This document shows, piece after piece, positions 750 through 53,500 of a DNA stretch of 64,000 nt; the stretch's first letter is position 1; the number at the start of each line of letters is the position of its first letter. The notes under the pieces were generated by a model. The model was not told the DNA's origin. It ran no database searches and saw only the letters and a list, made by a program, of their open reading frames with translations. Position numbers and translations under genes: made by a program. Origin of the DNA: a virus; IMG/VR virus record IMGVR_UViG_3300042305_001483; one strand, given 5' to 3'.

Positions 750-3700
750 ATGGCCAAGCAAACAATTAACATAGGTACTGGTGAAACTTCAGGTGATGGC
801 GAAAGTTTAAGATCTGCTTTTCAAAAAGTAAATTCCAACTTTGACGAATTATATATTACACCCGGTATTTCCGGACCAAGTGGACCGACTGGTGCAGCAG
901 GAAGTAGTGGACCAACTGGTGCAGCAGGAAGTAGTGGACCAACTGGTGCAGCAGGAAGTAGTGGACCAAGTGGACCAACTGGTGCAGCAGGAAGTAGTGG
1001 ACCAAGTGGACCAACTGGTGCAGCAGGAAGTAGTGGACCAACCGGACCTCAAGATTTTTCAGCAATATCGGAGCACGTTTTACCGGCAGCAGATTTAACC
1101 TACGATCTTGGATCTACCTCTAGTCAATGGCGTAGTTTGTATGTTGGCACAGGAACAATTTATATCGGTGGAATTCCTTTAAGTGTAACAACCAGTGGTT
1201 CTTTAACGATTAGTGGATCTCCTGTAGTTACATACAGCACTAGTGGTAATTTTGTTGTTAATGGTAACACAGTATTAGGCGGCGGTCTACATACTATCAC
1301 TGTTCCAGCTGAAGTAGGTTCTACTTACAAAGGCCTACACGTAGCCTATGGTAGAGTGCATTCTAACGGTAATTCCAGCGAACTTAATGTTAGTAAAATT
1401 GTCATACACAAACCAGCAGCATCTACAGTAACCATAGACCCTGTAGGCAATCGAGATGATTTTCGAGTCAGCGAAATCAGCAGCAGTGATGTCCTTGCTA
1501 TGTTTGTCTTATACGGCAATGTCAACGGTGCTAAACCTTTAACCGATTTACAGGCATTCGCTGAAGCAGCTATTGACACAGTTATTCTAGATGAGGGACA
1601 GGAAGGTGTGTATAACAGTGTAGAACAAATGAAAACATTGTTCTACGAAAATCATGAAACTCTAGCAGCAGCAGCAAATGGTCTAGACACTGACTTTGTA
1701 TTTTATAGGACCAGCTTATCTACACTTAATGGCGGCCCAACTGTAACACGTCAAGGTTCGGGAGCAGTATTTGATGTAAGTAATAACGGCGACGGAACTT
1801 ATTCTATTGCGTCAATTGTTAACAGCGGAACTAACTATCTACCAGGACATAGAATCAGCATATCAGGAGAAATATTTGGCGCTACTGTTGGTGCGGCATC
1901 TGCTATGATAGTAACCAACGGACCTAATCTTAACTGGTCTAATACCGACGTATCTGGAGCCGACGGAATGGATTTCTCATTCACGGTAGACGAAAATGGT
2001 AATGCCACAGTTACTAATATTACTAATGGCGGCACTGATAAGACTGTTGGATACACATTTACCTTACTAGGAACTGCATTAGGTCTAGCAACTCCGGCAG
2101 ATGATATTAATTTTGAAGTAACCGCAATTACTTTTGCTCCCTACGATGCCATAATCACAGTTACATCAGTGACTGATACTACTATTGTTGCTGTCGAAGT
2201 CACTGGCACTGCGCCAGACTCTAGTTCAACAGTTTATACAAATGTCACTGGCACAAACTATAATGTAGGTTCAGGATTTACTGTAGCCAGTGTATCCAGT
2301 AGTAGTATTAGTTCAAACAGTATAGGAACTAACTATGTTGTAGGTGATGTCTTAACTCTATTAGGAGAAAACATCACCAACGGCACAACTCCAACAAACA
2401 ACATTACTATAACAATCGACGCCGTTGACGGCCTTGGCCAAGCATATAATTATACTAGTTCAGGAACAATACCACAAGTTTGGCCAACTAATAATATCAA
2501 CGACGGTGGTAACGATCAATACGATACAGCCAACTATATTAGAACCAATCTTGCCGATCGAATATCCTATAACAATGGCGCGACTGTAGTAGACGGAACA
2601 GCAGCATTTGGCACAGGAAGTTCTTACAGTTTTGTTTACAACACCGGAACATTTGGTCTGTTTGCCACAGGAACTAGTGTTACCTTTGTCGAAACCAATG
2701 GTAACAGCGGTGCTGACAGCAACAGCATTACTGATTCAGGACATATTTACGGTCCAAGCACAACAACATCAACCTATGACAATGCTGTTACACACCTTAA
2801 TCTTGTAGGTGATGTTTATGCTGGTCCGCTGGTAACTTTTGTAAAAGCTGACAATACCAATACTGTTGACATTATAATCGCAGACGATGGTGATGGAGCA
2901 GGTGTTGGCATTACTAGAGGCGAAGAAAACGGTATATACAATCCGTATAGAGAAGACGGTTGGGACAGTGATGTTAGCCCTAGCGGCACACTATGGAACA
3001 TAGATGGATGGAATGATTTAAGCAATGTAGAGTCAAGAACCTACAGAAACTTGTATGCAGCATTCGGCAATGGCGGATTAGGTAATAAGATTGTAGGCGC
3101 AGAGTGCGTGATGTATCTGCCAGACAACGGCAAATACTATGCCGTTAAATTTACTCAATGGACACAAGGTGGCGGCGGTGGATTTGCTTACACTCGCAGA
3201 GAACTAGATCTCGAAAGTCTACAAGAAGGCATACGTTTCAACGACGGTTCTGTATTGAAATCCGCAGAAGGCATCGGTCGTGTTAAGTTAGAATCACCGG
3301 GCAATCGTAGAATTGAAGAAGTCTATGGATTTAAGCAAGTCGTAGTCACTGAAATAATTACTACTAATCTAACTGCTACAGCATCAAGAAGTGCGGTAAG
3401 CGAGAATAGAATCTGGGTCGACACTACTACAACTACAATAGATAATGTACTAAACAATTATACTCTTGCTGGAATTTGGGATAGTAATACTATAGAATTT
3501 AGTTTAGATAATGCCACTTGGTACAAGTATAACGGTGGAATCAGCGCTGACGGGAACGAAAGAGCATATGGATTAAATCTTCCTGGTGGTATTTTAAACT
3601 ACAACGCGGGTGATACGGTTTGGTTTAGATACAGCACAGGGGGAGAACCTGTGATATGGTGGGATAAGAATGAACTACCCGGAGGGGGAGGCTACTTCCG

Positions 3701-3959
3701 TGGTGCTGTTATAGACTATCATGCCTACGATCGTAATGCAGGAACATTAGTTGGCACCATACACATTGTCGATGATAATGGTAACGAACATGTAGCCCAC
3801 ACCGAAGTTACTAGTGGTGGCACTGAAAGTGAAAATGTAATACTGTGGCTGCAGGACAACGAAGGCCAACTCAAGTTTAGGCGTATAGACGGTGTCGGAA
3901 CTACTATAAAAATACAGTGGACTGCTAAAGTATTCTACGGTTCAGAAACTTGGGATTAA
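750..3959 (+). CDS. Tail-fibre/appendage-like protein with gp9/gp10-like N-terminus and collagen-like segment
   Basis: MAKQTINIG...[22 protein letters not shown]-terminus, Gly-X-Y repeats, [12 protein letters not shown] motif, repeated G-rich beta modules. Confidence 0.7.
873..1048 (+). repeat. Tandem repeat encoding collagen-like (GPTGAAGSS)n
   Basis: Five near-identical 27 bp units GGACCAACTGGTGCAGCAGGAAGTAGT with interspersed 9 bp GGACCAAGT units. Confidence 0.95.
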
Positions 3960-10855: not shown

Positions 10856-11217
10856 GAGCACGCGAATTCATGGTTGAACGCAAAGGCGGAAAAATGACCA
10901 AGCGTCAACAAAATCCTACCCGCGGCGTTAACAAATACACTGATGACGATAAGTGGAATAGCGATTACAAATTATATAGATTGGGCTTGGCACTGGCTGC
11001 AACTGATGGAAAAACAATGCCAGAGATGGATGAAGAAAGTTGGATCGGTAGATATAAAAGTCTACATCCATATAGTCAATGTGATCAAGATATGATCAAT
11101 GTTGCGGCTAAAGTAGCCGGAGTTAATATACACGATGTAAACAAAGGTGACATGAGAAGTCAAGAAACACCAGATACTTATACAGTAAGTCCAGTGGCGA
11201 ATTGGAGTAAAAAATGA
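10852..11217 (+). CDS. Probable internal head protein
   Basis: Leader MRAREFMVE resembles the T4 capsid-targeting sequence MKTYQEFIAE. Confidence 0.55.
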   Translation: MRAREFMVERKGGKMTKRQQNPTRGVNKYTDDDKWNSDYKLYRLGLALAATDGKTMPEMDEESWIGRYKSLHPYSQCDQDMINVAAKVAGVNIHDVNKGDMRSQETPDTYTVSPVANWSKK

Positions 11218-13163
11218 ACGAAGAATTTAAAAAAGTTAAATTACCTAATGAAACTAGGTACGTTTTAGAAACAACAACTGCAGGTGCTATTGGAACGAAT
11301 AGTATTGCTACTGCGGAAAAACCCCTAGGTGAACTTCAAAGACGACAGACAATTTCTGTGCCTGTTAATCAGAAGCCTCGTCAAGGTCCGATGAAATCAC
11401 AGACCGGTGCAGGTGCGCATCGTGATAAGAAAAAAGAACAAAAACAAGGTAAAGAAAAACATCGTAAGCCTTTTGATGAAGAGAAAGGTGTAGCAGAAGG
11501 AATTGAACAAGCCGATCTAAGTCCAGAGGTTATTGAAATATCCAAGGATCTTTATAAATCCTTGCGTCGTTCAGCCAGAGATTCGTTACGAGCCAAAAAA
11601 ACTATGTTAGTTATTAAGATAACCCGTGAATTGACCCCTCAAGAAAAAAAACTAGTAGATGACACTATGAATCAATCTGGTATTGAGTATCAGATCAAAA
11701 ATAATGTAAACGATTATGTGTATGGAACCTATAAAAATACATTAATCGGTATACCATATACACAATCTACTACGGAACAAGGTGTGGCGGAAACAACAGG
11801 TGACGAAAAATTTGATAAATCAATGAGAAAAATGACTGGAAAAATTACTCCAGGCGATGCTGACGAGATGTGGCCGACACAAGAATTTGAACCAGTTGAT
11901 CTTGATCCATCATACTTGCCAAGTATGGAAAAATACAAGGCAAAATTATTTCCATTGGCTTACCAATACTGGACTGACGGCGACAATGCAGATGAATTAA
12001 GGGCATTAGGATGGGAACCCGATTATGGCGACGACTATGTTATGGTGGTGCTGTCTGGCATCGGACACGACGGTCACATTCAATACGACAAATATGATTT
12101 TGATGCTGAAGATGAAAACAATGAAGGTGTGGCGGAAGGCGATCAAGAACCTGACCACGAAATTAGCATGGCCAGCAACGAACTCCAAAGTATCATGTCT
12201 GATGCTAAAAAATTATTAGTTCTAATCAAACGTTATAGCGAGATGGAAGGGCTAGAAGCATGGCAACAAAGTAAAATTACTAAATCGGCAGATTATTTAA
12301 CTGCTGTATTGCGCAGCATCGGTGGAGAACAAGGTGCGTTAGAATCTCAAGTTAATGAGTACGAAACCCACACTTATAAAGATAGTCAAGGCAATGTATG
12401 GCGTGTCAACGACGAGGGCGAAAAAGAATTACTTCGTGGAGCACCGGGCAGTAGTTATGGCGGTAGCAGATATGGATCAAGATATCCTAGTAGATCATAT
12501 TCAAAGCCTTCAGGAATGTATTTTTATAACGTAAAACCTGGGCAAGAAAATGATGCACAATCTGCTGGTTTAAAACAAAGCAAAAGTGGAAAATGGTATT
12601 CGACTTATCAAAATTCACAAGCAGATAAATTATTTGGTCCAGGAAAGTTTTGGCAACCAAAAAATGAAGCAAGTGTAGCGGAAGGTATGAATTCTTTATC
12701 ATTCTGGAAGCGTGAAGCACAAAAGGCCGGTGGTGCTGCCAATATTGATTGGTATGCTATTGGCGTCGAACACGGCAAACAAGGTATTGTAATGAATCCT
12801 CCATATGGTGTAGGCGCTAAAGCCGTAACATTATACGGCAAAGGATTAGATGCCGGTCAGCAAGGTGTAGCGGAAGGCAAGAAAAAAGGTGTAGATGGTA
12901 AAGCCTGCTGGAAAGGTTACAAACGTATGGGCACTAAAAAGAAAGGTGGCCGCACTGTAGACAACTGTGTACCAGTAGGCGAGGATTCTTATATCGAAAG
13001 TCTTATGAATCAACTATATGAAAAGGCTCCTCCAGGAGACAAATATGAACGTATAGTCAAGCATATTAAAGCAGGATATAGAAAAGACGGTAAACTAACT
13101 GATGTAGAAAAACGCAAGGCCTACGGTGCTGCTTGGAAGGCAAAAAATAAATCAAAAAAGTAA
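11214..13163 (+). CDS. Modular polyprotein with GVAE junctions, probable protease-processed head protein
   Basis: Five (G/S)VAE motifs separate unrelated modules, including WQQSKITKSADYL and CWKGYKRMGTKKKGG..NCVP. Confidence 0.7.
   Translation: MNEEFKKVKLPNETRYVLETTTAGAIGTNSIATAEKPLGELQRRQTISVPVNQKPRQGPMKSQTGAGAHRDKKKEQKQGKEKHRKPFDEEKGVAEGIEQADLSPEVIEISKDLYKSLRRSARDSLRAKKTMLVIKITRELTPQEKKLVDDTMNQSGIEYQIKNNVNDYVYGTYKNTLIGIPYTQSTTEQGVAETTGDEKFDKSMRKMTGKITPGDADEMWPTQEFEPVDLDPSYLPSMEKYKAKLFPLAYQYWTDGDNADELRALGWEPDYGDDYVMVVLSGIGHDGHIQYDKYDFDAEDENNEGVAEGDQEPDHEISMASNELQSIMSDAKKLLVLIKRYSEMEGLEAWQQSKITKSADYLTAVLRSIGGEQGALESQVNEYETHTYKDSQGNVWRVNDEGEKELLRGAPGSSYGGSRYGSRYPSRSYSKPSGMYFYNVKPGQENDAQSAGLKQSKSGKWYSTYQNSQADKLFGPGKFWQPKNEASVAEGMNSLSFWKREAQKAGGAANIDWYAIGVEHGKQGIVMNPPYGVGAKAVTLYGKGLDAGQQGVAEGKKKGVDGKACWKGYKRMGTKKKGGRTVDNCVPVGEDSYIESLMNQLYEKAPPGDKYERIVKHIKAGYRKDGKLTDVEKRKAYGAAWKAKNKSKK
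11485..12878 (+). repeat. Dispersed in-frame direct repeat, consensus AAGGTGTRGCGGAAGG, 5 copies
   Basis: Copies with the G/S codon at 11487, 11781, 12126, 12672 and 12864. Confidence 0.85.
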
Positions 13164-13203
13164 GTGAGCAGGAACCGCAAGATCCGGCACAGGATCCTGC
13201 TCA
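13135..13203 (+). promoter_or_regulatory. Candidate programmed -1 ribosomal frameshift signal
   Basis: SD-like GGAAGG 13135-13140, in-frame A_AAA_AAG 13154-13160 followed by TAA, 9 bp stem TGAGCAGGA/TCCTGCTCA 13165-13203. Confidence 0.65.
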
Positions 13204-13381
13204 AGATAAACCTAAATTAAAGCCGGCAGTAAAATTAACTCCTGCCGTGTCATTGGATCAATGGGAACAAACTTTTTTAGATGCTGACCCAGAAAGATAT
13301 CATCAATTTAGAAATAAAACTCCTGCTAAAAAAATTCAAATGGCACAGTCTGCTAGAAAACACGCTATTGAGAAAAACTGA
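13160..13381 (+). CDS. Start-less -1 frame ORF (73 aa), predicted frameshift extension of the 11214 polyprotein
   Basis: VSEQEPQDPAQDPAQDKPK...ARKHAIEKN*; fills the gap exactly and its TGA overlaps the next ATG (TGATG); the frame is closed upstream by TAA 13148-13150. Confidence 0.7.
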   Translation, partial: VSEQEPQDPAQDPAQDKPKLKPAVKLTPAVSLDQWEQTFLDADPERYHQFRNKTPAKKIQMAQSARKHAIEKN

Positions 13382-13809
13382 TGAGAAATTTTATAACATT
13401 AGTCGAATCGGCAAATAAAGGTTGCCCAATTGCCACACATAACATAGATATTAATTTAAAAAATCGGCAAAAAGCCATAGACGAATATCACTACGGGCCA
13501 GCCAATCCCGATAAACCAGAAGATTATTGGAAAAAATCTGCTAAGATATTTGGAGTAAGTGAGACAACTGCTAAAACAATGCGATGCGGTAATTGTGCAG
13601 CATTCGATGTTAGCGATAGCATGAGGGAATGCATTGCAACTGGGATTAAAGGCAACGAAAAAAATATTGACCCAAACGCAACTATAAATCTCAGCGATCT
13701 AGGATATTGTAATTTTTTACATTTTAAATGTGCAGGTAGTCGCAGTTGTAAAGCATGGGTTACCGGAGGCCCAATTACTGAAAAAGATAAAGGTAAGAAA
13801 GCAGATTAA
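13381..13809 (+). CDS. Cys-rich protein, possible HiPIP-like Fe-S or Zn binder, with head-targeting-like leader
   Basis: MRNFITLVE leader; RCGNCAAF...GYC..LHFKCAGSRSCKAW. Confidence 0.5.
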   Translation: MRNFITLVESANKGCPIATHNIDINLKNRQKAIDEYHYGPANPDKPEDYWKKSAKIFGVSETTAKTMRCGNCAAFDVSDSMRECIATGIKGNEKNIDPNATINLSDLGYCNFLHFKCAGSRSCKAWVTGGPITEKDKGKKAD

Positions 13810-13810
13810 C

Positions 13811-14374
13811 ATGAGATTTAAAGAGTTAAATGAAATTAGTCCTCCGACCTTTAAGGGTAGTTTAACTCCCGATCTGCTAAAAAGTAAACTTTGGCTATGC
13901 CAAAATTTAAAAGTGTTAAATCGAGAAAAATTCTCAACAATTTATATATTAGGATCGTGGTACGGCACAATGGCAATAATGCTAGACCGATGCGGAATAA
14001 AATTTAAAAAAGTGATTAATGTTGATTTAGACAAAAATCATATTGCTATTTCTAAAAAAATACTTTCAGCATTAAAAATAAATCATCAGTGTATCCAAAA
14101 AGATGTTAACACGTTAAAATTTGAACAATTGGATAAAAACAGTCTAATTATTAACACTTCAATAAACGACATTAATGGAACAGAATGGTTTGATAAAATT
14201 CCAGATGGGACATTGATAGCACTACAAAGTAGAAACAATGCCAACGGAGTATACGATACATTAGAAGAATTAGATCAAGAATTTTTTCTTACTGATACCT
14301 TAGTTTTAGACGAAAAAACTTTCGAAGATCCAGAGACTCAATATCAAAGATTTATGAAAATTGGCATTAAATGA
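13811..14374 (+). CDS. Class I SAM-dependent methyltransferase-like protein (start moved to ATG 13811)
   Basis: IYILGSWYG motif I-like, VINVDLD, IINTS; leader MRFKELNE. Confidence 0.6.
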   Translation: MRFKELNEISPPTFKGSLTPDLLKSKLWLCQNLKVLNREKFSTIYILGSWYGTMAIMLDRCGIKFKKVINVDLDKNHIAISKKILSALKINHQCIQKDVNTLKFEQLDKNSLIINTSINDINGTEWFDKIPDGTLIALQSRNNANGVYDTLEELDQEFFLTDTLVLDEKTFEDPETQYQRFMKIGIK

Positions 14375-41560: not shown

Positions 41561-44500
41561 TTAATTTGAATTTCCGTAATACCATTTATCAGGAATTTCT
41601 GTAGAATGTCGCCTTATGAACTTAGATTGAATTGACTCGGATTCCATCAACGATGTTGATGTATTCCAATAATTTCCTATTTTTTGTTCTATTTCAACTT
41701 TAGTTCTTAAAGTAAAATCTTCAACATGAATATTTAATTCAAAATTACCAGTTGATTCATTAAATTTAACAGTAAATTCTGGATCAAGTGTTCTTAAACT
41801 TGTAGACGTAGAATCGTATGCTAAATTGTAATCATGTACTTTAGACGCAGTTTTTCTCAACAGTCTACCACCAAATTTAACAGAAATCTGATCGTTAAGG
41901 TACTGCTCTAAACCATTTGTTGTACTTAATATAATACCATCTCCACCAGACTGATACATAGTTCCGGTGTTAATAACAAATGAACTTGAACTAATAGCAA
42001 TCGTGTACGTTCCATTAGAATTTGTAACAGTATTAACAACATATGTTCCAGTGGCTTCAGATGTTATATGATACTGTTTCTTAATGGTATCAGTATAAGG
42101 AATAAATTGTTGAGGGCTTTGATCAAAGACTTTTGTTCCAACATCGGATATTTCTGCAGGAGAAGTACCCATAGTACCCCTTCTAAGTCCGCTTAGTACA
42201 TTACTATCTTTAGAGAAAAATTCAATTCTTTCGCTATCGACGAATATAACTCCCGGAATATTTCTGTGGAAATTAGGAGGTATTAAACTTGAAGAATCTG
42301 TTACATGAATTTCAGTATCAGTTAACTTTAATTCTTTAGTTAATCTTGTACCGTAAAAATTAGATAATCTAGAATATGTGGTTCTATTAAAAATGTCATT
42401 AAATATTTTATATCCATAAACTAAATTAGATCGTAATGTTGTCGAAACATATGAAATAGTAATTTCGTCATCAGATTGAATACTAATAGAATTGTTTAGT
42501 GAAACTGTTCTAAAATCATCCAAAATAGTAAAATCATTGTTAGCAATCAAATATTGTTTATTCAATGCTACCCAAACATATCTACTATCAGATACCGGCA
42601 ATCCTAAAGTAAATTTTAGACCAGCATCGCCTTTAAATCTTTCCGTCCTCAACATCATTCCATCATAATCAGCAAATGATATAACTTTAACTGAACTAGA
42701 AGGTTGAATTGGAGTTGTAAAAATTATAGTGTTATTATTAATTACATAATCAAAATTAACTAATGATTCAATTGCTAAAATTGCGCCGTTAGATGCTATT
42801 CCAGATGATATTGTCACTGTACCAGTAACACTATTAATAGAATAATCAAAACCAGGAGCAAGCAATCGACCGTTTAAATAGACTTTAATATTTGAATTAG
42901 TATATGTTCCCGGAGGACGGCTTGTATTGTCAATATTGAAAGTTGTTGTCGATCCATCCAATTTATAGTAATTAACATCAGGAGGATTTAAACGCTTTCT
43001 GCCTTTAACTAAAGTAGTCGAATCTGGTTCATATACTTCAACAAATACTTGAGCACTTAACGGCTCAGTTGTTCCTAATAAATTTGTGACCAAAATACTA
43101 GAAGTAGGTGCTGCAATACTAAATTGTTCTTCAAATATTTGACTAAATTTTCCAAAATTAGATTTTAAAAACCAAGCCTGGATTGTTCGTTTACTGTCTG
43201 CAATATTAGTTACCCTAACTGCCGCCCTCTTATTTTTTGGTCCCGCAGGTATTAGTTCGTAATTGCTAGAATTAACTTCACGACCGTCTATTGTCACATA
43301 TACACTTCTTATATCATCAATAAACGCAGAACTAATCAATGTCGCAGTACTCTGTCCATATTCAGTTAATAACGTAACCGAGTCTGCAACATATTCTCCG
43401 CCAATAGTTAATAAATTGTAACCTACTTTACCGTTAACATCTTGAGGCGCAATATACAATTCATCATTCATAACGTAAAATTGAGAAGAGGTTGTAAAGA
43501 AATACTCATCAACAACTCCACTGCTAGGAGGTTCATATATTCTATCTAACATCTTTCCTTCGAAATTTACAGTTATATAAATTGATTCTTCTAAAGGTAC
43601 TCCCAATTTAAACGATGATATAGCGTTTGCACTAATAGGGACTATACCGGACATTGCAATCGGCGACGATTTATTTTCTTGAGTAAACACATTGATAGAA
43701 ACAGATTCATATGTATTACCTTTAACATGCTCTTCCGGTGATTGACCAATATTTTGAGATATTAATCCACTACCGTCAATAACTAAATCACCAGGATTAA
43801 TGCCAAGGGCTCCTACAAAATTTCCAGAACCGTTCCACGACCCTGCACTTATTTCAGTATCTAATTCATCAAAACTAAAGTTATCTTTCCAAAATTCTAC
43901 AATTGGATATCCATACAAATCAACTTTTATTTTGTTTGTTACATTTGAATTTAGATTAAAAATTTCAACATTATATGTGTTATTTGAAGTAGTTGAAACA
44001 TTATAATAACTTCCATACAATAGATCGTTTACATATATGGTAACCGTAGAAACACTGTTAAATAAAACATTTGTGTCATAGGCCACTGTTGAAGTATTAG
44101 ATACTAAATTTTCAAAAGAATAAATGTTGTAAAGAGAATTTACATTAACTTCATTAAATACCGCCGGAACAGTTACCTTTGCAGTTACACCTAAAGTTTT
44201 TACTGTTGATGTTGTCAATAATGTAATAGCGTGTGTTCCGGTTCCTACAGCAGTAAATCTATCTGTTCCAGAATTAGTAACAATATATTTTCCGTCAAAT
44301 CCTAAAATAGTTCCGTCGTCAACTCCGGATATTTCTATAATAGAACCACTAGTTATTTTTCCATTAAAATCTTCGGTAGTAAAAAATACTATATTTCCTT
44401 GAGTAGTTAAGGAATCAGATATAATTCGTTTTAATCTGTATTCAGAATTTGCAATAGAAACTGTTTTAGTAGAAGTATTAACAGCAGATACTACTGCATC

Positions 44501-47500
44501 ACTTCTTATATGAGATGTAGAAGTATTTGTTAATAAAATTTTCTGACCAATACTTACACCTTCAACAGAATCTAGATAAAGAACTGTTCCAGAATAATTT
44601 ATATTTTTAACTAATTTAGCCGAAGTATAATAGTTAACTAAATTTGACCACGCTGAATCGTTATCAAAATAACCGTAATTCCATGGTAACGAATAACCAA
44701 AATTTAACCCTTGAATTACTGTATTTTTATATTCTGCTCCCGACATCAATAGCGGGATTTCTTTACCTACCATATCGTCCGTTGGTTGATAAAATTTGTT
44801 AATTCTATCAACAGCATGATAAATTGATATATTTTTCTCGTAGGTAATTTTAAATTTTTGTCCTAATTTTGGAATATAATTTAAAAATACAAACTCACAA
44901 TATTGACTTGTATAATTATTAATATTTTCTGTAAAATATTCAATTGTATAATCAGTTGAAAAAATAATTTTACTATCCAATAAAGGAACAATTTTTGATT
45001 TATTCGGTTGCGCTAACCATGTTAATCTAAATCTATTATTTCCAGTACACTCAAAAGTTTCAGTAATTCTAGAACTATCTATTTCTTCATTAACTCCAGT
45101 TCTATCAAATTTAATGCCTAATATATTTTTTCTAATATAATCATTGCCTAATTCTACCGAAACCTTTGCAGGTTTTACAACATTTGGGCCGCCACCGACT
45201 ATAGTAACAGTAGGTGGTCGAACATATCCGCTTCCAGGATTTGAAACTAAAACTTTAAATACTCCGCCATTTCGAATATATGCTTCTGCAGTTGCTCCAC
45301 TGCCTGTATCACCGAGTGCAGGAGTTATAACTACCGTAGGATTCTGTGTGTATCCTTCTCCGTTGTCAGCAACTAAGACATTCTTAACATAATATTTGTA
45401 ATTGTCAGCCCACCATTTCCAAGGATACTCAGTAATCTCACTACTTGTCAATCCAACTAATTCATAACTGTTTGAAACAGTATTAAAATATGCAGGCAAA
45501 TCAAAATCTGTAGATACACTATTTGAAGTTTCATTTGTTAATGAGTATTTTGATGTGTAAGATCTAATTTTTGTTCTATATGGTTTTACTTCTCTAATAT
45601 AATCTTCGAAATAGTTTTCGTTGTCTAACCTATAAACTGATTTTTGATCTAATTCGCCAACTTGATTGTTAACAGAAATAAAACTAGTTTTAAATACCCA
45701 ATCTAAAAGTTTTTGTTCAGTAAATGCATATCGAACTGCTTTAAAGAAGAATAAATTCCAATTTATTTTTAGATTACCTACAAAAATATCGTCTTTTAGG
45801 GCATATAAAATATGATTTAATTCTTGATCAGGAATTTGATCATATAAAGTTTCTTCCAATGTAGCAGCGTCATAGGAATAATTAGATTCTTTAAAATTCC
45901 AAATTTCATCAGAAATTTGAATTGTTCCATTTTGGCTATAGACAATTTTATATTGTAGGGCAAAATCTCCTATTTGATCACTATCTAATTTTTCTAGAAT
46001 TATGTATCGACCATCACCTACATTATTGATTTTTACATAATCACCCGTGACAGTAGAAGACGCTATCGGCAATTCTGTTGGATCTTTTAATACTACTGCG
46101 TAGTCTTTATAACCATTGTAATTTTCGTCTACCCAATCTACATAATTCCAATACAACGGAGTATTATAAGATTGTGTCTGAATTCTTGTCCAATTTTTAA
46201 ATTCATAATTGAAAAGATGTTTAGTCCACCTGTTTCCGTATTCTGAATTTGTTCGAACAATCGTCGTGTGCCCTCTTATAATAATTTTTTCTGAACTATC
46301 TAAATTTCCTAGATAATTTTTTCCAGGGTTAGAAATTATTACATTAATAACTCTTCCACTTCCGTCAATTTCAGATAATAGTTCGGCACCTTCTCCAGAA
46401 CTAGAAAGTATTTCAATTTTTGGAGGAATGCTATACCCAAAACCAGGATTTATAATTTCAACACTAACTACTTTTCCATTATATGTACTATAGATTAGTT
46501 CTGCTTGTGAGAATTTAGAAATATCAATTTGATCTAATTCTTCTAAATCATCAACAATAAAATCATACTCTCTAGATAAAATATCTGGTATTTCTTCTTT
46601 CTTATTTAGGTTAGTAAAATCATAAAACCCAGTAATTTTATTTTTTATTAGTACAGAATTAGTAAACTCAACAAGATTTCTTAACGCCAATAATCTATCT
46701 TTAAACATTGATTGACGAGGTCTTATTTCTATGCCATACCTATTTCTTACTGATAAATTTAAATCAGGAACTGTTTGACCTAAATCATCGTGACCTAATA
46801 AACTATCAAATAACTTTTTAGTTAACGTGGTAGTTGGGACACTGTCTTTATTTCCTTCTTCTAATAGCAACCATTCTGTATGTTTAGGAATATTATTATT
46901 AATTTCATCAAATGAAATGTTTGAATTAATTCTATCGCCGACTAAAATTGGTTGAACATTCGCAAACGAAATAGCATTTTGAGACAATATCGATGCAAAT
47001 CTTATTCCATTTGCAGCAGGATCTAAAATCAAATTAGCAACTTGTATAGCACTGATTCTTCTATTACGAGAATTAGGTACAGTAACTTTATTTTTTACCC
47101 AGAAATAATAAACATTCTCAAAAGAATTAGTAACATTGTTGAACACCTGTTTAACAGACATTACTGAATTATCTGGATATTTTGGTTGTCCGCTAATTCC
47201 TTTTGTTAATCCTTCATTAGTATCTGCTTGCGCAGCCCATTCTGACGGCAATAAATCGGATTTAACCCATTCGTAAATATCTATACTTGATCCAGGAAAA
47301 ATTTTACCCCAATTATTTTTTCTAAATATTTCATCGCCCTGTTCATACCATAGATATTTAACAGTACTTAGATCCCACCATAAATCACCTATATGGTCAT
47401 CAATCCAACTAGAATTTGAATCTACAGAATTTAATGCAGTTCCTATCGAATACATTGCAGGATCAAACGTAGATTTGTATTTTAACTCTTGTTCTGCTAA

Positions 47501-50500
47501 TCCTATAATTTTTCCTTTTACAGGATCAAAAATATCTAGATACTCAATTATTTCTTCTTTAAAAGAATCTATTAATTTAATACTTTTGATTTTTTGAGAA
47601 TCTACTAGATTTGGTTGATTTCTTAAAACTTTCCAACTGTTGATTGAAGTATCTAATTTGTCAAATTTAAAGAACGTAGAATCGTCTAGAGAAGTAGCAT
47701 TTTTAATCCACGGTGCGCCTACAAGAATAAAATCATTTAGAGAAGACACAGAAAAACCAAATCTACTTCCTTCTAAAATTGAAGAATCGCTTAATTCTTC
47801 AGATTGAATAAAATATCCATCTAAGTTGTTGAAAACATAAACAGTTCCAGAATCGTCAACAGGTGAAATAAATTCTGTGCTTCCTTTATCAAATGTTGTT
47901 TTTCCTACATTTGAATTTTCATCAAATACATAAGTTGATGATCTATTTCTTCCAAGAGCGCCTACTGTTAAAATATCTTCATTCTTGTTTAGAGAAATAC
48001 TTACTCCAAATTTTAAATCTGTAGTAAACGATGGATTTTCTATAATTTGATTTAAGACGTAAGTTCCAGTAGATGTTAAATTTGTAGCAGAATAAACTGC
48101 AATATTTCCAAATGTACCATCACTATTTTTTATGTCAGGAGACGAAATTAATAAGAATTTTCCTGACGATGAAACAAAAATATCAGAACCAAATGTTCGA
48201 TTTTCTTCAAACGGAGAATATATAACTTGCTTTGAAACTAAATTTTTATTAAAAATTTCCACCAACCCTGTTTTACTACCGGTTGTAAATCCAGGTGCCG
48301 AAACTGCAATAAAATTTCCATTATCGCTTCCGGATATTTTTTCACCCCACTTACTGTATTGAGTAAGTATTACGGAAGAAGTTAAAGATATACCAGCGGT
48401 ATGTTGAACTAAACTTATTGCGTTAGAATCAGTAGAAGTAGTTAAATGATATGCAAACACAAATCCAGTTGATGTATTGTTAACTCCATCGCCAGGTGCT
48501 CCAATTAATACTGTCGTAGCAGTTGATTTGTTAACTTTATCAACATATATTGTATTTCCGAATCTTAAATAATTTGCTTTAGCAGATGTGTTAGAGTAAG
48601 AGCCTGGAGCAAGCAATATTGCTACAGTTTCTTCCTCTTCTACTGTAGATTTTTCTCTACTAATTTTTACTAATCCTTCAGAAATAAATCCCTTAGAACT
48701 TCCCGTGCCCGTACTAAAAGAAATTGTTCCAGTGTTGTTAGTAATAATATTAGATGCTTTAGGTGCTCCAGCAAAAATTAATTCTTTACCATCATCATAA
48801 TTTAATGTATATCCAAATTCAGAATTTGTCGATGTACTGCAATAAATTTTGTTGTTTGAATTTAAAATGTATTCGAACAACTTATCTAATATATTCTGTT
48901 TTTGGTTGTAAACCCATATTCTTCCAACACTATTAGCACTACCGCTGTTCCAAGATGGAGAAGAAACTAAAACAACTTGAGAATTGTCTCTAGCATAAAT
49001 TGAATACCCTAATTCTTGTCCAAAAGGATTACCCAAAGAATTAAAATAGGTTCCTGTACTATAATTTTTAACTTTTTCATAGACAGACCACTTTTGATCA
49101 ACTTTATCTACCCAAATTTTTTCTCCGTTTTCAAATTTATATAATTCTTTAAACTCTGAAACTTTTAAAAAATCTTCAAATCTAACTGATTGAAATTTAA
49201 AAATACTACCTAGTTCAACAAGATCGTCGTCTACAATCGAAGATAGAGTAGAATCAACTGTAAATTGATTTAATTTTGGTACTGCTTTAACATTATAGAT
49301 ACCGTTTACTTGATCATTAAAATTAACAACGGAAACAATATCTCCAATTTTTAAATCATGAAATAGATCACAAGAAAATGTGATATCAATTCCAGGTGAA
49401 CTTACAAACACTCCTGTAATTTTTGCTGTTTGTTTAGAATACCTGTAAACGTCCCAATTTCCATTGTCTAAAAATCCTATCCATATTGTATCTTTTTCAT
49501 TTAATAAATTGTTGTTTGCAATATCAAGAATACTGTTAGTGTTGTATGCTGTTACATTTACATCATCGGGTCTAACATAACCTGCTGAAGGAAATTGAAA
49601 TAAACTTTCGTCTTGCACTTCATTTTTACTAATCTTAAATACGTCATTTATTTCAAAATTTGTAGGCTTAATTAAAATATCTTCTGATAGAATATAATTA
49701 ATTAAGTTATTTTTTTCTGCAGGAACTTCATTGCTAAACTTAACAATATAAGGATTTTCTAAAGAATTTCCTTCATTTAATTTAAATTCTACTTCTTGGA
49801 ATGTTTCGTATCCACCATAATGACCGACTCTAAATGCCCACTCTTCAGTAAAATTAATACTTCCTTTTCTAGCATAAGATCCAACTTTTACAATTTTATC
49901 TAATGCGTTTTTGGTTCCTTTTTCTTTAATGTAACCTTGATAAAATTTATACTGAGTTGTTGGGTTAGTAAAAATGTTATTTAAATAAGGTCTCTCAGAG
50001 TAACCTATTAGGTGTTGCGCTAATTGTTGTTGAGAGATATCAAAATTATCAATATCTAAACTGTAAAAATCTTCAAACTGATTAATCTTATAAGAAAAAT
50101 TAGGCAATAAATCTGGAGAAGGTTGTTCTCTTAATTTCGACCATTCATTAAAATTAAAAAATTCACTTCCCACAATTTTAATGTTTGATTGATAATAAAC
50201 TCCATTATACCTAACAATTGAACCCGGCAAGTAGGAAACAAATGGTTTCCAATCGCCAACAAAAACTTCATCATAAACAAATCCCGGACTAAAGAAATCA
50301 CCGTTCCAATTTGCTGTTCTAAATCCAGAAATTTTTAATCTTCTTTGTCTGTAGCCGGTGTCTAAATCATAAATTATATCATTGAATAATGTCCTATTAT
50401 CAAAAATCATTGCATGTTCTTTTTGTACAGTATTCAATAATGCAAAAAACAATCCTTCTTCAGTGTTAACAGTTTCGATGACACAAATACCATCATCTCT

Positions 50501-53500
50501 AGATAACTTAATATTTTCTTTTGGAAAACTTTTTCCATCTGCTTTTAATAAGTTATATTCATAAGAATTATAATTGATATCATCAACTATAGAATTCTTA
50601 TTTCCAAATTTTAAAGATTTTGCAAAAGGACTAATTGTTATGAGATTATTATTACTCCAATTTTGAGTTGTCCAAAATAAAAATTCTTTCGCGGAAAATT
50701 TCCAATCTAATATCTCAGTTAGGTCATTATCATACTGATCAAATATAAAACCATTTGATTCTAACCAACGACTGTAACCTAAAATAACATTATAAACTTC
50801 TTGAATTGTAGAATACATTGTTCCATACGGAATACGAACAGACCTTGATTCAAATAAAGATGGGACTAAAACAGTAACTCCGCCTTTTACTGGTAATTTT
50901 GATATTGGTTGGAATAATGTAGGATCAAAATTTGAAGAAGCATTATGACCAACTTTTACTCTATAGTATGAATTATTGTATCTAACCAGTTGACCTGATT
51001 TATAATACCTAGTGGTATTAACGTTGGCTGTAGTTGTATCAGAAAAAGTTACACTAGAATTTGCATTACCAGTAATGCTAGACCATTCAGTAAACGGTTC
51101 TGCAATCCCTCCGACCGTAACTGATTTTGAATTTCCAGATATAATAGCAGGAAAAATTTCAAAATATGGATTTGATTTATCGTATCCTTTAATTAAAAAT
51201 TTTCCATTGTATTTTTGAATTACAATACCAGAAATTCTAAATGATTGAATTGTATTACTTTTATTTAAAATAAGGTCATAATTTTCAGGAGGTAAAATGG
51301 CGCCCTGTGACATAGAAGAAACATCAACAGTGTCCATAATCAATTGAATTTTGTTTTTACTTGTAAATCCTCCCAATTTATGAAATAGATTAAAGTCTAA
51401 GAAAGACAAATCATTTTTTAAAGTGTTTAAATAATTGAGATTTTTCAATCTACCATATTCTATAATTAAATTTCCAAATCCAGAACTTTGGTTATTTTCA
51501 TTATCTAAAATTAACTTATTTGGGTTCAAATATAAATCATCATTGTATAAAATTTGATTTAATTCATTAATAGTTGTCCTACTAACATCAAACAATTTAG
51601 AAGTATATGAACAAGGATCAAGTAAGGCCGCTACAATGTTTAATGCAAAAGGCCAAAGACTGCTTCTTCTCCATGCAACTTCTGCAGGACTGAAATCTCC
51701 AAATTTCCAATCTTGTTGTTTTTCAAATATAGAAGATTCTGATACTAAAAATGTATCAGGAGATTTTAAATTTCCAAATTCATCTACCGGTATAATAGAT
51801 AACAATCCAGATCTTGCATAATTTAAGTTATATCTATTTTCTCCTCGAATGTATCCATTACTCAAGTCTGTCCAAAGCAATACATTTGAAGATGTATACG
51901 GTGCTAATCCGTAAGTAGTTGTCCACCAGTTTGGTCTTTCATTAAAACCCAACATTTCCCACGGTGTTAAATGAGGCTTATCTGTATCATAAAAATACTG
52001 GTATATTCCTCGCCATGAACCGCTTACATTTTTTGAAAATAAAGTATCAACAGTTGTTGAATAGTTAAATGTAAAAGGATTTGTTTCATCAAAGGTTGTA
52101 TTTGACGAAAAATTAACATTAAATTGATTTGTCCAATTTATAAATTCTTTTATTAAAATATTATTAGAGTCGTCGATTGTATATCTGTTGATTCTGAAAG
52201 CACCAGAAATGACAGAATTCATATCAAACAATTTAGAATTGTAACTTACTTTGATATTGTTATAAATTCTTTTTTCAAATTCTAAAATAATTTGATCCCT
52301 GTAATCACCATATGCCTTTGTTAAACTTCCATCGTGTCCAAGTATCATCGTCACTGGACCTTGTACATAAGAAGTATCTTCGACTATTGCAGGTTTAAAT
52401 TTTGGATACAACCCCAATTTGCTAGGAGTCGGTGGCACAAAAGATCCTGTGGTGTCGTTATAAAAATAAATTTTAATTTTATCTCCAGTAGATAAATTTG
52501 ATAATATTTCTACTGTCGAGTCTAACGAATTTATTTGATAATCTTGACCGTTAATTAGTAAACTATCATTTACATACACAGAAAGTGCATTAAAACTTAA
52601 CTTTGTATTGTCAAAATTATCTCTAATAGGGTAAATTTTATTAACTACGATACCAACCGTAAATTCAGTAACAATTTTGTCTTCACCATAAGGTACCATA
52701 TCGGACCTGTAAAATAAAGAATCTATATTGTTGTTTCTGTTAATATACTTCAGTGCAATATCTAATGCTTCTGCAGGAGAAAACTGACTTTCAATCTTTC
52801 CTAATGTGTCAAACAAATTTAATTTATATTGGTTATATAAGTACCCAACAAATCTTAAGGAATCTAAAACATTATGATCTTTTTTTGCTAAAAATAATTT
52901 TGAATATACTAGCGGAGTAGAATTAATTATAAGCCTTGTACCAAATTTTGAATAATTGCTTAAATCTCTTAAATTGCTTTTTCCCGGAAATTGTCCTTGA
53001 AAATTTGTAATTTTTGGTATCATCGATCCTACATGATCTGATAATTCACTTAATGTAAAACTAGAAATTGGACCATTTAATGGATTGTTAGTTAAGTTTA
53101 AAACAGGTTCATAAAATCCGTTGTTGTTTGGAGAATTATTAGAAAATATATTAAAATAAATGGCATCATTTTCTTTTAGCGGCTGTGAAAATGTGACCGT
53201 TGCTGTTTGATTAAAAGAAACTGTAGATTGAACAATATTATTGTTAACATAAGAAATTACTTGAGTAGATGTATCAAAAGGATAATCTAATGATTTTAAT
53301 TCTATTGTTGTTGTATTTGTTTGAACCGTTTGATTTTCAACAATTGGAATTTTATATCCTTCCGCCGAAGACCAAACATTAACTAAAAAGTTACCTAATT
53401 TTAAATATCCTAATGCAAGACTTTTTTGAGAAGTTACGTTATCAATAGTAACATTTATTGTATCAGTAGTGAAATAGTTTTTAAAAAGATAGTTTCCTAT

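Follow-up and report, generated by a model that had tools for sequence, protein, structure and literature searches.

The polyprotein gene of the DNA stretch analysed here (64,000 nucleotides (nt) of one strand from the virus record IMGVR_UViG_3300042305_001483 of IMG/VR, hereafter the window) ends in what we read, with a probability of roughly 0.87, as a programmed -1 ribosomal frameshift site, placed at the gene's 3' end; the polyprotein is modular, and its source a freshwater jumbo myophage. Judging from comparison of the sequences, most ribosomes would decode AAA AAG and stop at the TAA at 13161, giving a polyprotein of 649 amino acids (aa); some would pause on the heptamer A_AAA_AAG against a hairpin starting 4-6 nt downstream, the two lysyl-tRNAs would re-pair one base back (on AAA AAA), and the -1 frame would be read for 73 codons. 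The trans-frame product, of 649 + 73 = 722 aa, would consist of the polyprotein, a Pro/Gln-rich linker, and a two-helix C-terminal unit. This unit, in some relatives together with extra modules, would be supplied at a fixed sub-stoichiometric ratio, in the manner of lambda G/GT or of gag-pol, and the modules would later be separated by a prohead-type protease at hydrophobic-X-Glu sites. The signal is conserved among relatives; the slip, its efficiency, and the sub-stoichiometric ratio are what we infer from it. A preliminary description of the stretch had proposed a dnaX-style -1 frameshift that extends the polyprotein, a proposal now strongly supported by 49 distinct cassettes, seven further assemblies, coding selection on the extension, and distant relatives that carry the same unit in frame.

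The gene ends TCA AAA AAG TAA, with the heptamer in phase and the 0-frame stop directly 3' of it (Table 1); the stop may itself contribute to pausing there. A TAA at 13148-13150, three codons before the heptamer, closes the -1 frame upstream; this frame offers no ATG, GTG, or TTG before the GTG at 13247, and from the heptamer runs open, beginning with VSE, for 73 codons up to a TGA overlapping the next ATG. The sequence features and coordinates given in the preliminary description, those of the in-phase heptamer and of the 9-base-pair stem included, all stand on re-reading. The first part of the extension (13160-13231) is the Pro/Gln-rich linker, which holds the hairpin; this linker and junction region includes QEPQDPAQDPAQDK, and the tryptic peptide VSEQEPQDPAQDPAQDKPK lies within the linker, not across the heptamer junction. 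AAAAAAG occurs 48 times in the window, where 50.5 occurrences are expected, and is thus not enriched; at such chance level a single sequence proves little and is suggestive at best.

Table 1. Coordinates of the features discussed; positions refer to the window unless a contig handle precedes them.
Feature	Position	Strand	Remarks
0-frame polyprotein gene, 649 aa (P0001)	11214..13163	+	conserved N-terminal leader of the family; modules and five junctions
Shine-Dalgarno (SD)-like GGAAGG	13135..13140	+	13 nt upstream of heptamer; from the codons TGG AAG G, module end AWKAKNK
Slippery heptamer A_AAA_AAG	13154..13160	+	X_XXY_YYZ phase; 0-frame codons AAA AAG
-1 frame extension, 73 codons	13160..13378	+	starts VSEQEP; reads VSEQEPQDPAQDPAQDKPKLKPAVKLTPAVSLDQWEQTF...; relatives 44-77% identical (protein)
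0-frame stop TAA	13161..13163	+	directly 3' of heptamer; ends the short product
Putative stimulatory hairpin	13165..13203	+	arms 13165-13173 with 13195-13203; core AGCAGG (13167-13172)/CCUGCU (13196-13201)
Conserved C-terminal unit KL.P...LD.W..F..ADP.RYHQF(K/R)NKTP.KK..MA..A	13232..13378	+	two predicted helices
-1 frame stop TGA	13379..13381	+	overlaps the ATG at 13381 of the next gene
Next gene, 142 aa	13381..13809	+	no family match; start overlaps the stop of the extension
A10-G-TAA site of a sister clade	L062:3690-3770, L063:2520-2600, L065-L071		in-frame form L064:2880-2955

The case rests on the recurrence of the whole arrangement in relatives. Scans with the 73-aa tail found 13 loci in IMG/VR by protein pattern and 40 metagenome loci by alignment, and a 44-aa open reading frame (ORF) returned by gene callers (P0003) led to seven further assemblies from different samples; the samples of the relatives are mostly Joint Genome Institute (JGI) metagenomes, taken to be freshwater. 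Over all fetched metagenome-contig loci there are 49 different versions of the 210-nt cassette. The heptamer is in phase in every one (A_AAA_AAG in 39, A_AAA_AAA in 10), and the adjacent 0-frame TAA is present in 48, the remaining one (L032) having TCC TAG instead; in all 49 the heptamer and GAGCAGGA are separated by a 5-nt spacer, a stop closes the -1 frame 3-28 codons upstream, and this frame carries the YHQF(K/R)N module. Phase, stop, spacer, stem, and -1 module, shared by 49 distinct cassettes, are more than chance would bring together.

The same material bears on another explanation, which is that an assembly or sequencing error, or else a recent inactivating deletion of one nucleotide, has shortened a run of seven A (A7), the real or ancestral gene being a plain in-frame fusion. 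Homopolymers are prone to such indels, in-frame fusions do exist among the relatives, and one clade (L013, L060, and L061) carries what is probably a decayed copy of the unit; a 7-A run was also what the preliminary description had named as the mark of an assembly error. However, pattern scans of IMG/VR DNA find C-A6-GTAAG(Y)GAGCAGGA, with six A (A6), in 31 contigs and the in-frame A7 form of the cassette in none, and the cassette is identical (A6G) in the seven further assemblies, which are independent and come from different samples. The -1 module is moreover under purifying selection across the 49 distinct sequences, and the in-frame relatives lack the whole cassette, not merely one base. 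We give this explanation next to no chance.

The mean diversity at first/second/third codon positions is 0.33/0.30/0.51 for the linker and 0.21/0.16/0.48 for the C-terminal unit, and indels in the -1 extension occur in multiples of three only; third positions that vary most and indels in threes indicate that the linker between heptamer and unit is translated. This is of consequence for a second explanation, by which the unit is a separate small gene of about 44 aa, translated alone from the GTG at 13247 (ATG in most relatives), and the open frame upstream of it is incidental. Gene callers do return precisely such a 44-aa ORF (P0003), and the internal column that would serve as start is an ATG in 29 of the 34 cassettes tabulated and, in the window, a GTG. 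Yet no SD sequence precedes this column; four relatives (L001, L022, L023, and L040) have GTT, GTC, GTA, or ATC there; and every one of the 49 cassettes keeps the 29-40 codons upstream open, with a coding pattern of substitutions and indels in threes. The Met is, besides, a residue of the unit itself, found also in the in-frame fusion L046 (TTDMTVDQW), and the unit forms the C-terminus of the polyprotein in the in-frame relatives. Separate initiation at this column thus appears a poor explanation, and an independent small gene is very improbable.

The in-frame relatives place the extension within the polyprotein. An exhaustive profile search yields 159 cluster representatives, and in most of the long ones (P0012, P0018, P0052, P0101, P0114; also L046 and L049) the unit is in frame as the last ~50 residues; a word-index search for longer homologues had returned no fused form, a limitation of the index, whereas the profile search found many. 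In a junction alignment the in-frame relatives read ...D.Y.ESL....(L/V).E-KL.P...D.W..F..ADP.KYHQFKNKTP.KK... without a break, whereas the frameshift relatives carry an additional KK-VSEQEP...PAQ...P between the helix and KL.P; the cassette is therefore inserted within a unit that elsewhere runs on unbroken. Fusions that are in frame and have no hairpin had been set down in the preliminary description as evidence against recoding. They do exist, but since they show the unit as the in-frame C-terminus of distant relatives, they tie the module to the polyprotein and thereby favour the frameshift. In the AlphaFold model of the tail the linker is disordered and helices span residues 32-41 and 55-72 (mean predicted local distance difference test (pLDDT) score 75, 85-91 in the core); a Foldseek search of this model against the PDB gives no match at E <= 0.001, and the fold thus offers no functional lead.

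The cassette follows at least five different upstream modules and in this respect acts like a constant 3'-terminal piece within a system of shuffled modules. Its tail is 71-318 codons long across the 49 versions, the long tails (L003, L036, P0010) adding modules in the -1 frame that are joined by QGVAEG or ENF(A/V) junctions, the same kind as in the 0-frame part. In these three (L003:4001-4864, L036:2265-3218, and P0010) the -1 frame continues for 230-320 codons, with modules separated by ENFVAE, ENFADG, or QGVAEG; one of the extra modules is basic, KRHG(I/V)NTK.SVSSLRKTAKQGGRKGQLAHW.ANMKAGRAKK.

The hairpin of the window has 9 base pairs and a small distal extension (-18.4 kcal/mol, z = -2.4 by RNAfold; 4 of 200 shuffles fold as well), and its first pair lies 4 nt, its constant core 6 nt, from the heptamer. 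It is present in all 34 cassettes folded, at -15.6 to -25.4 kcal/mol. The AGCAGG/CCUGCU core is constant in all 34 of the cassettes tabulated, whereas the sequence between the arms varies freely and the distance between them takes the values 22, 25, 34, or 40 nt, in steps that are multiples of three. Among 15 short-loop sequences, the share of paired cells is 82%, and falls to 23-41% once the 3' partners are slid. The frozen synonymous sites in the codons of the stem argue more strongly for the hairpin than covariation does: GAG is used in 34 of 34 cassettes, CAG in 33 of 34, and CCT GCT in 34 of 34, whereas the other conserved Pro, Ala, Glu, and Gln positions of the tail use two to four codons each. 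All four stem codons are thus constant or nearly so, compared with 1 of about 27 other conserved degenerate codons; a Fisher estimate of ~2e-4 for this difference comes from our own count on related sequences and is indicative only.

Two other roles for the RNA in this region were considered and rejected. A pseudoknot could be drawn from 5-mers that match between loop and downstream sequence (CCGGC/GCCGG in the window, CCGAC/GUCGG in another clade), but such matches occur at about the chance rate we estimate and are absent in the long-loop clades; and the hairpin is not a terminator, as there is no terminator-like site at 12800-13900.

Several observations weigh against a programmed frameshift, or at least against parts of it. 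The compensatory changes that the preliminary description had suggested looking for, beside a conserved heptamer, are weak: in the 15 short-loop sequences one pair alone changes on both sides (GC in 4, UA in 4; in another tabulation GC in 13, AU in 2, and UA in 5), the observed covariation score is reached by 38 of 500 shuffles, and the stem, constant for the greater part, coincides with conserved residues (EQE/DP, PA). The SD-like sequence upstream, also part of the original proposal, is present where it was described, but derives from Trp-Lys codons and is not conserved among relatives: GGAAAG takes its place in close relatives and, at a different spacing, GAGGAA in another clade, where anti-SD pairing ends ~5 nt before the heptamer (6-7 nt by direct reading), and the clade of L001, L022, and L023 has nothing comparable. 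GGAAGG may thus be an optional or incidental stimulator, which could help in the source phage. The ATG found in most cassettes at the internal column leaves room for some independent initiation. Finally, high shiftiness of A_AAA_AAG is confined to settings in which a single tRNA-Lys decodes AAA as well as AAG (PMC5009743), and the window encodes no tRNA.

A further alternative is that it is not the ribosome that slips but RNA polymerase, which would add one A within the A6 or A7 run, the edited mRNA then being translated normally into the fusion. The site is a homopolymer, with seven A in 10 of the 49 cassettes, and the dnaX gene of Thermus works in this way (PMC5009743). The long homopolymer that goes with transcriptional slippage (typically at least 9 A or T) is, however, absent from the window, where six A are followed by G, a run that by general knowledge is short for efficient slippage of a bacterial polymerase; nor would a slipping polymerase need an in-phase heptamer, a 5-nt spacer, or a hairpin with frozen synonymous sites, all of which are conserved. 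For the window we hold polymerase slippage to be improbable. Of the canonical marks of a programmed -1 ribosomal frameshift signal, those present here are an in-phase heptamer, a stable structure starting 4-6 nt downstream (canonically about 5-9 nt), and a conserved, coding -1 ORF that lacks a start and is homologous to in-frame sequence; compensatory base changes are limited to the one pair.

A sister clade lends polymerase slippage more weight, as it breaks the C-terminal unit at a run of ten A (A10), which is long enough for it. About 35 representatives end ...FKNKTPEKKK, where the DNA reads CCA G-A10-G TAA TGG CC; the last 18 residues of the unit (VMATAALYKARQPKVKKQ) lie in the -1 frame, whose TGA again overlaps the next ATG. 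The A10 form is found in nine contigs (L062, L063, and L065-L071) and an in-frame A11 form only in L064; in IMG/VR, A10 occurs in 7 contigs and A11 in 0. The run would be a second recoding or slippage site in the family, and there, where the length typical of transcriptional slippage is attained, polymerase slippage is a real alternative to a ribosomal event. In a third clade (L013:3970-4150, L060:2970-3150, L061:2970-3150) the unit is in frame, but has a TAA in place of a sense codon (two such in L013) and lacks one A in the A-run of its KK; this copy is probably decaying, as far as can be read from its sequence.

Taken together, the clades raise the possibility that the C-terminal unit is dosage-critical and that sister clades have independently put it under recoding at two points, so that recoding sets the share of polyprotein copies that carry the unit and the -1 stop gates the downstream gene; this is a tentative idea, which we judge possible but rather unlikely. 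If it were true, one of the points would be a transplantable heptamer-stop-hairpin cassette before the unit, and the other the A10-G-TAA inside it; the unit could be, for example, an anchor or release element for capsid-packaged cargo; and the gating of the downstream gene would follow from the overlap of the -1 stop with the next ATG, both in the window and in the A10 clade.

As to this downstream gene, the 0-frame stop sits 217 nt upstream of its ATG, where only frameshifted ribosomes end, and upstream of it there is just a weak SD sequence (GAG). The gene may be coupled translationally to frameshifted ribosomes, and the frameshift could then tune its expression. Searches of Pfam and PHROGs returned no family for this gene or for the -1 tail.

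In the polyprotein itself (P0001), five (G/S)VAE(G/T) junctions part modules that are unrelated to each other. Relatives have the same N-terminal leader (MN.EFKK...T.Y(V/T)LE...) and QGVAEG junctions as P0001, and differ in their internal modules. Across the family (for example P0012, P0018, P0052, P0084, P0100, and P0105) the leader and the C-terminal unit are conserved, and the modules between them, joined by QGVAEG, are freely shuffled. The VSE at the start of the tail, a putative cleavage site, has its codons in the spacer and the stem's 5' arm, and its conservation may therefore reflect a constraint on the RNA. The prohead protease family of Pfam (PF03420) has no match in the 125-kb record; control genomes are equally silent, and the record is only 35% complete.

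Among annotated phages, megablast with the locus and tblastn with the -1 tail give no match, and tblastn with the polyprotein finds nothing beyond single modules, whose counterparts are small genes standing alone (DUF6321, for example) in myoviruses of Synechococcus and Prochlorococcus. The polyprotein gene has no match in Pfam, and its PHROG matches are limited to families of unknown function; we found no description of the polyprotein family or of its frameshift in the literature.

The source record measures 125.5 kb, with a completeness of 35% by CheckV. It encodes a T4 gp5-like baseplate protein, a tail-collar protein, and a family B DNA polymerase, along with an ORF of 4573 codons, and from this content it is read as a fragment of a jumbo myophage. 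The neighbours of the polyprotein gene are a ferritin/Dps-like gene, small unknown genes, a carbamoyltransferase, and the family B DNA polymerase. Elsewhere in the window, the 4573-codon ORF (41561-55282, minus strand) adjoins one of 1179 codons among tail- and baseplate-like genes, and a protein of 1069 aa (750-3959, plus strand), with a collagen triple-helix repeat near its N-terminus (Pfam PF01391), is probably a fibre.

Gene callers miss the extension, of which they return only the 44-aa orphan ORF, and the polyprotein family is consequently misannotated in dozens of freshwater jumbo-phage contigs. A frameshift at this site would add a well-conserved, simple -1 signal of bacterial type outside the contexts of tail chaperones, dnaX, and insertion sequences (IS), and would single out the C-terminal unit as the dose-controlled part of cargo-like polyproteins, giving a handle on the function of a large unknown family. 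The relatives form a natural comparative series, with A_AAA_AAG and A_AAA_AAA, four loop lengths, presence and absence of the SD-like element, in-frame relatives, and the A10 variant.

One of the closest known systems is dnaX. As in the window, the element of Escherichia coli consists of A_AAA_AAG and a simple stem-loop a few nt downstream, and the window also has the SD-like sequence upstream; the Rfam model of the DnaX element (RF00382, model positions 1-65) aligns end to end with 13135-13204, spanning the SD-like region, the heptamer, the spacer AGUGA, and the stem, at 20.6 bits (E 0.016-0.037), where the gathering score of the family is 35. The element thus works like dnaX, as its parts suggest, but is outside the RF00382 family. 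In E. coli the shift shortens the product, whereas here it would lengthen it; the gene and its biology are unrelated, and the SD-like sequence, in the dnaX element about 10 nt 5' of the heptamer, is not conserved here and differs among relatives in strength and spacing. A_AAA_AAG is the shift site of dnaX and of IS elements alike, and a reversed dnaX arrangement is known, in which the shift site is followed by a 0-frame stop and the long product depends on shifting (PMC5009743); the window resembles the latter in having its 0-frame stop directly after the site and its longer product from the frameshift. The orfA-orfB arrangement of IS3-family elements (IS911-type) likewise joins A_AAA_AAG and a downstream structure in bacteria into the making of a fusion protein (PMC5009743), but the product there is a transposase, the stimulatory structure is more elaborate, and there is no relation in sequence or function to the gene described here.

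The phage frameshifts known so far are mainly those of tail assembly chaperone genes, others being found in capsid genes and elsewhere (PMC10885494). The model case is lambda G/GT, where a low-level -1 shift fixes the ratio of products and is conserved across many phages (PMC5009743). As in gpG/gpGT, a -1 shift close to the gene's 3' end would here give a short major product and a C-terminally extended minor one; unlike it, the polyprotein gene has no chaperone match in Pfam or PHROGs, does not lie between tail tube and tape measure, and would be extended by a polyprotein module. The lambda heptamer, G_GGA_AAG, also differs from the A_AAA_AAG found here. In the use to which the shift would be put, close parallels are retroviral gag-pol and coronavirus ORF1a/1b, where a -1 shift immediately before the 0-frame stop adds further modules, at a lower molar ratio, to a polyprotein that a protease then processes (PMC10885494); these are eukaryotic RNA viruses, many with pseudoknots, whose extensions are enzymes, whereas the window belongs to a double-stranded DNA phage with small modules, which would be released by processing.

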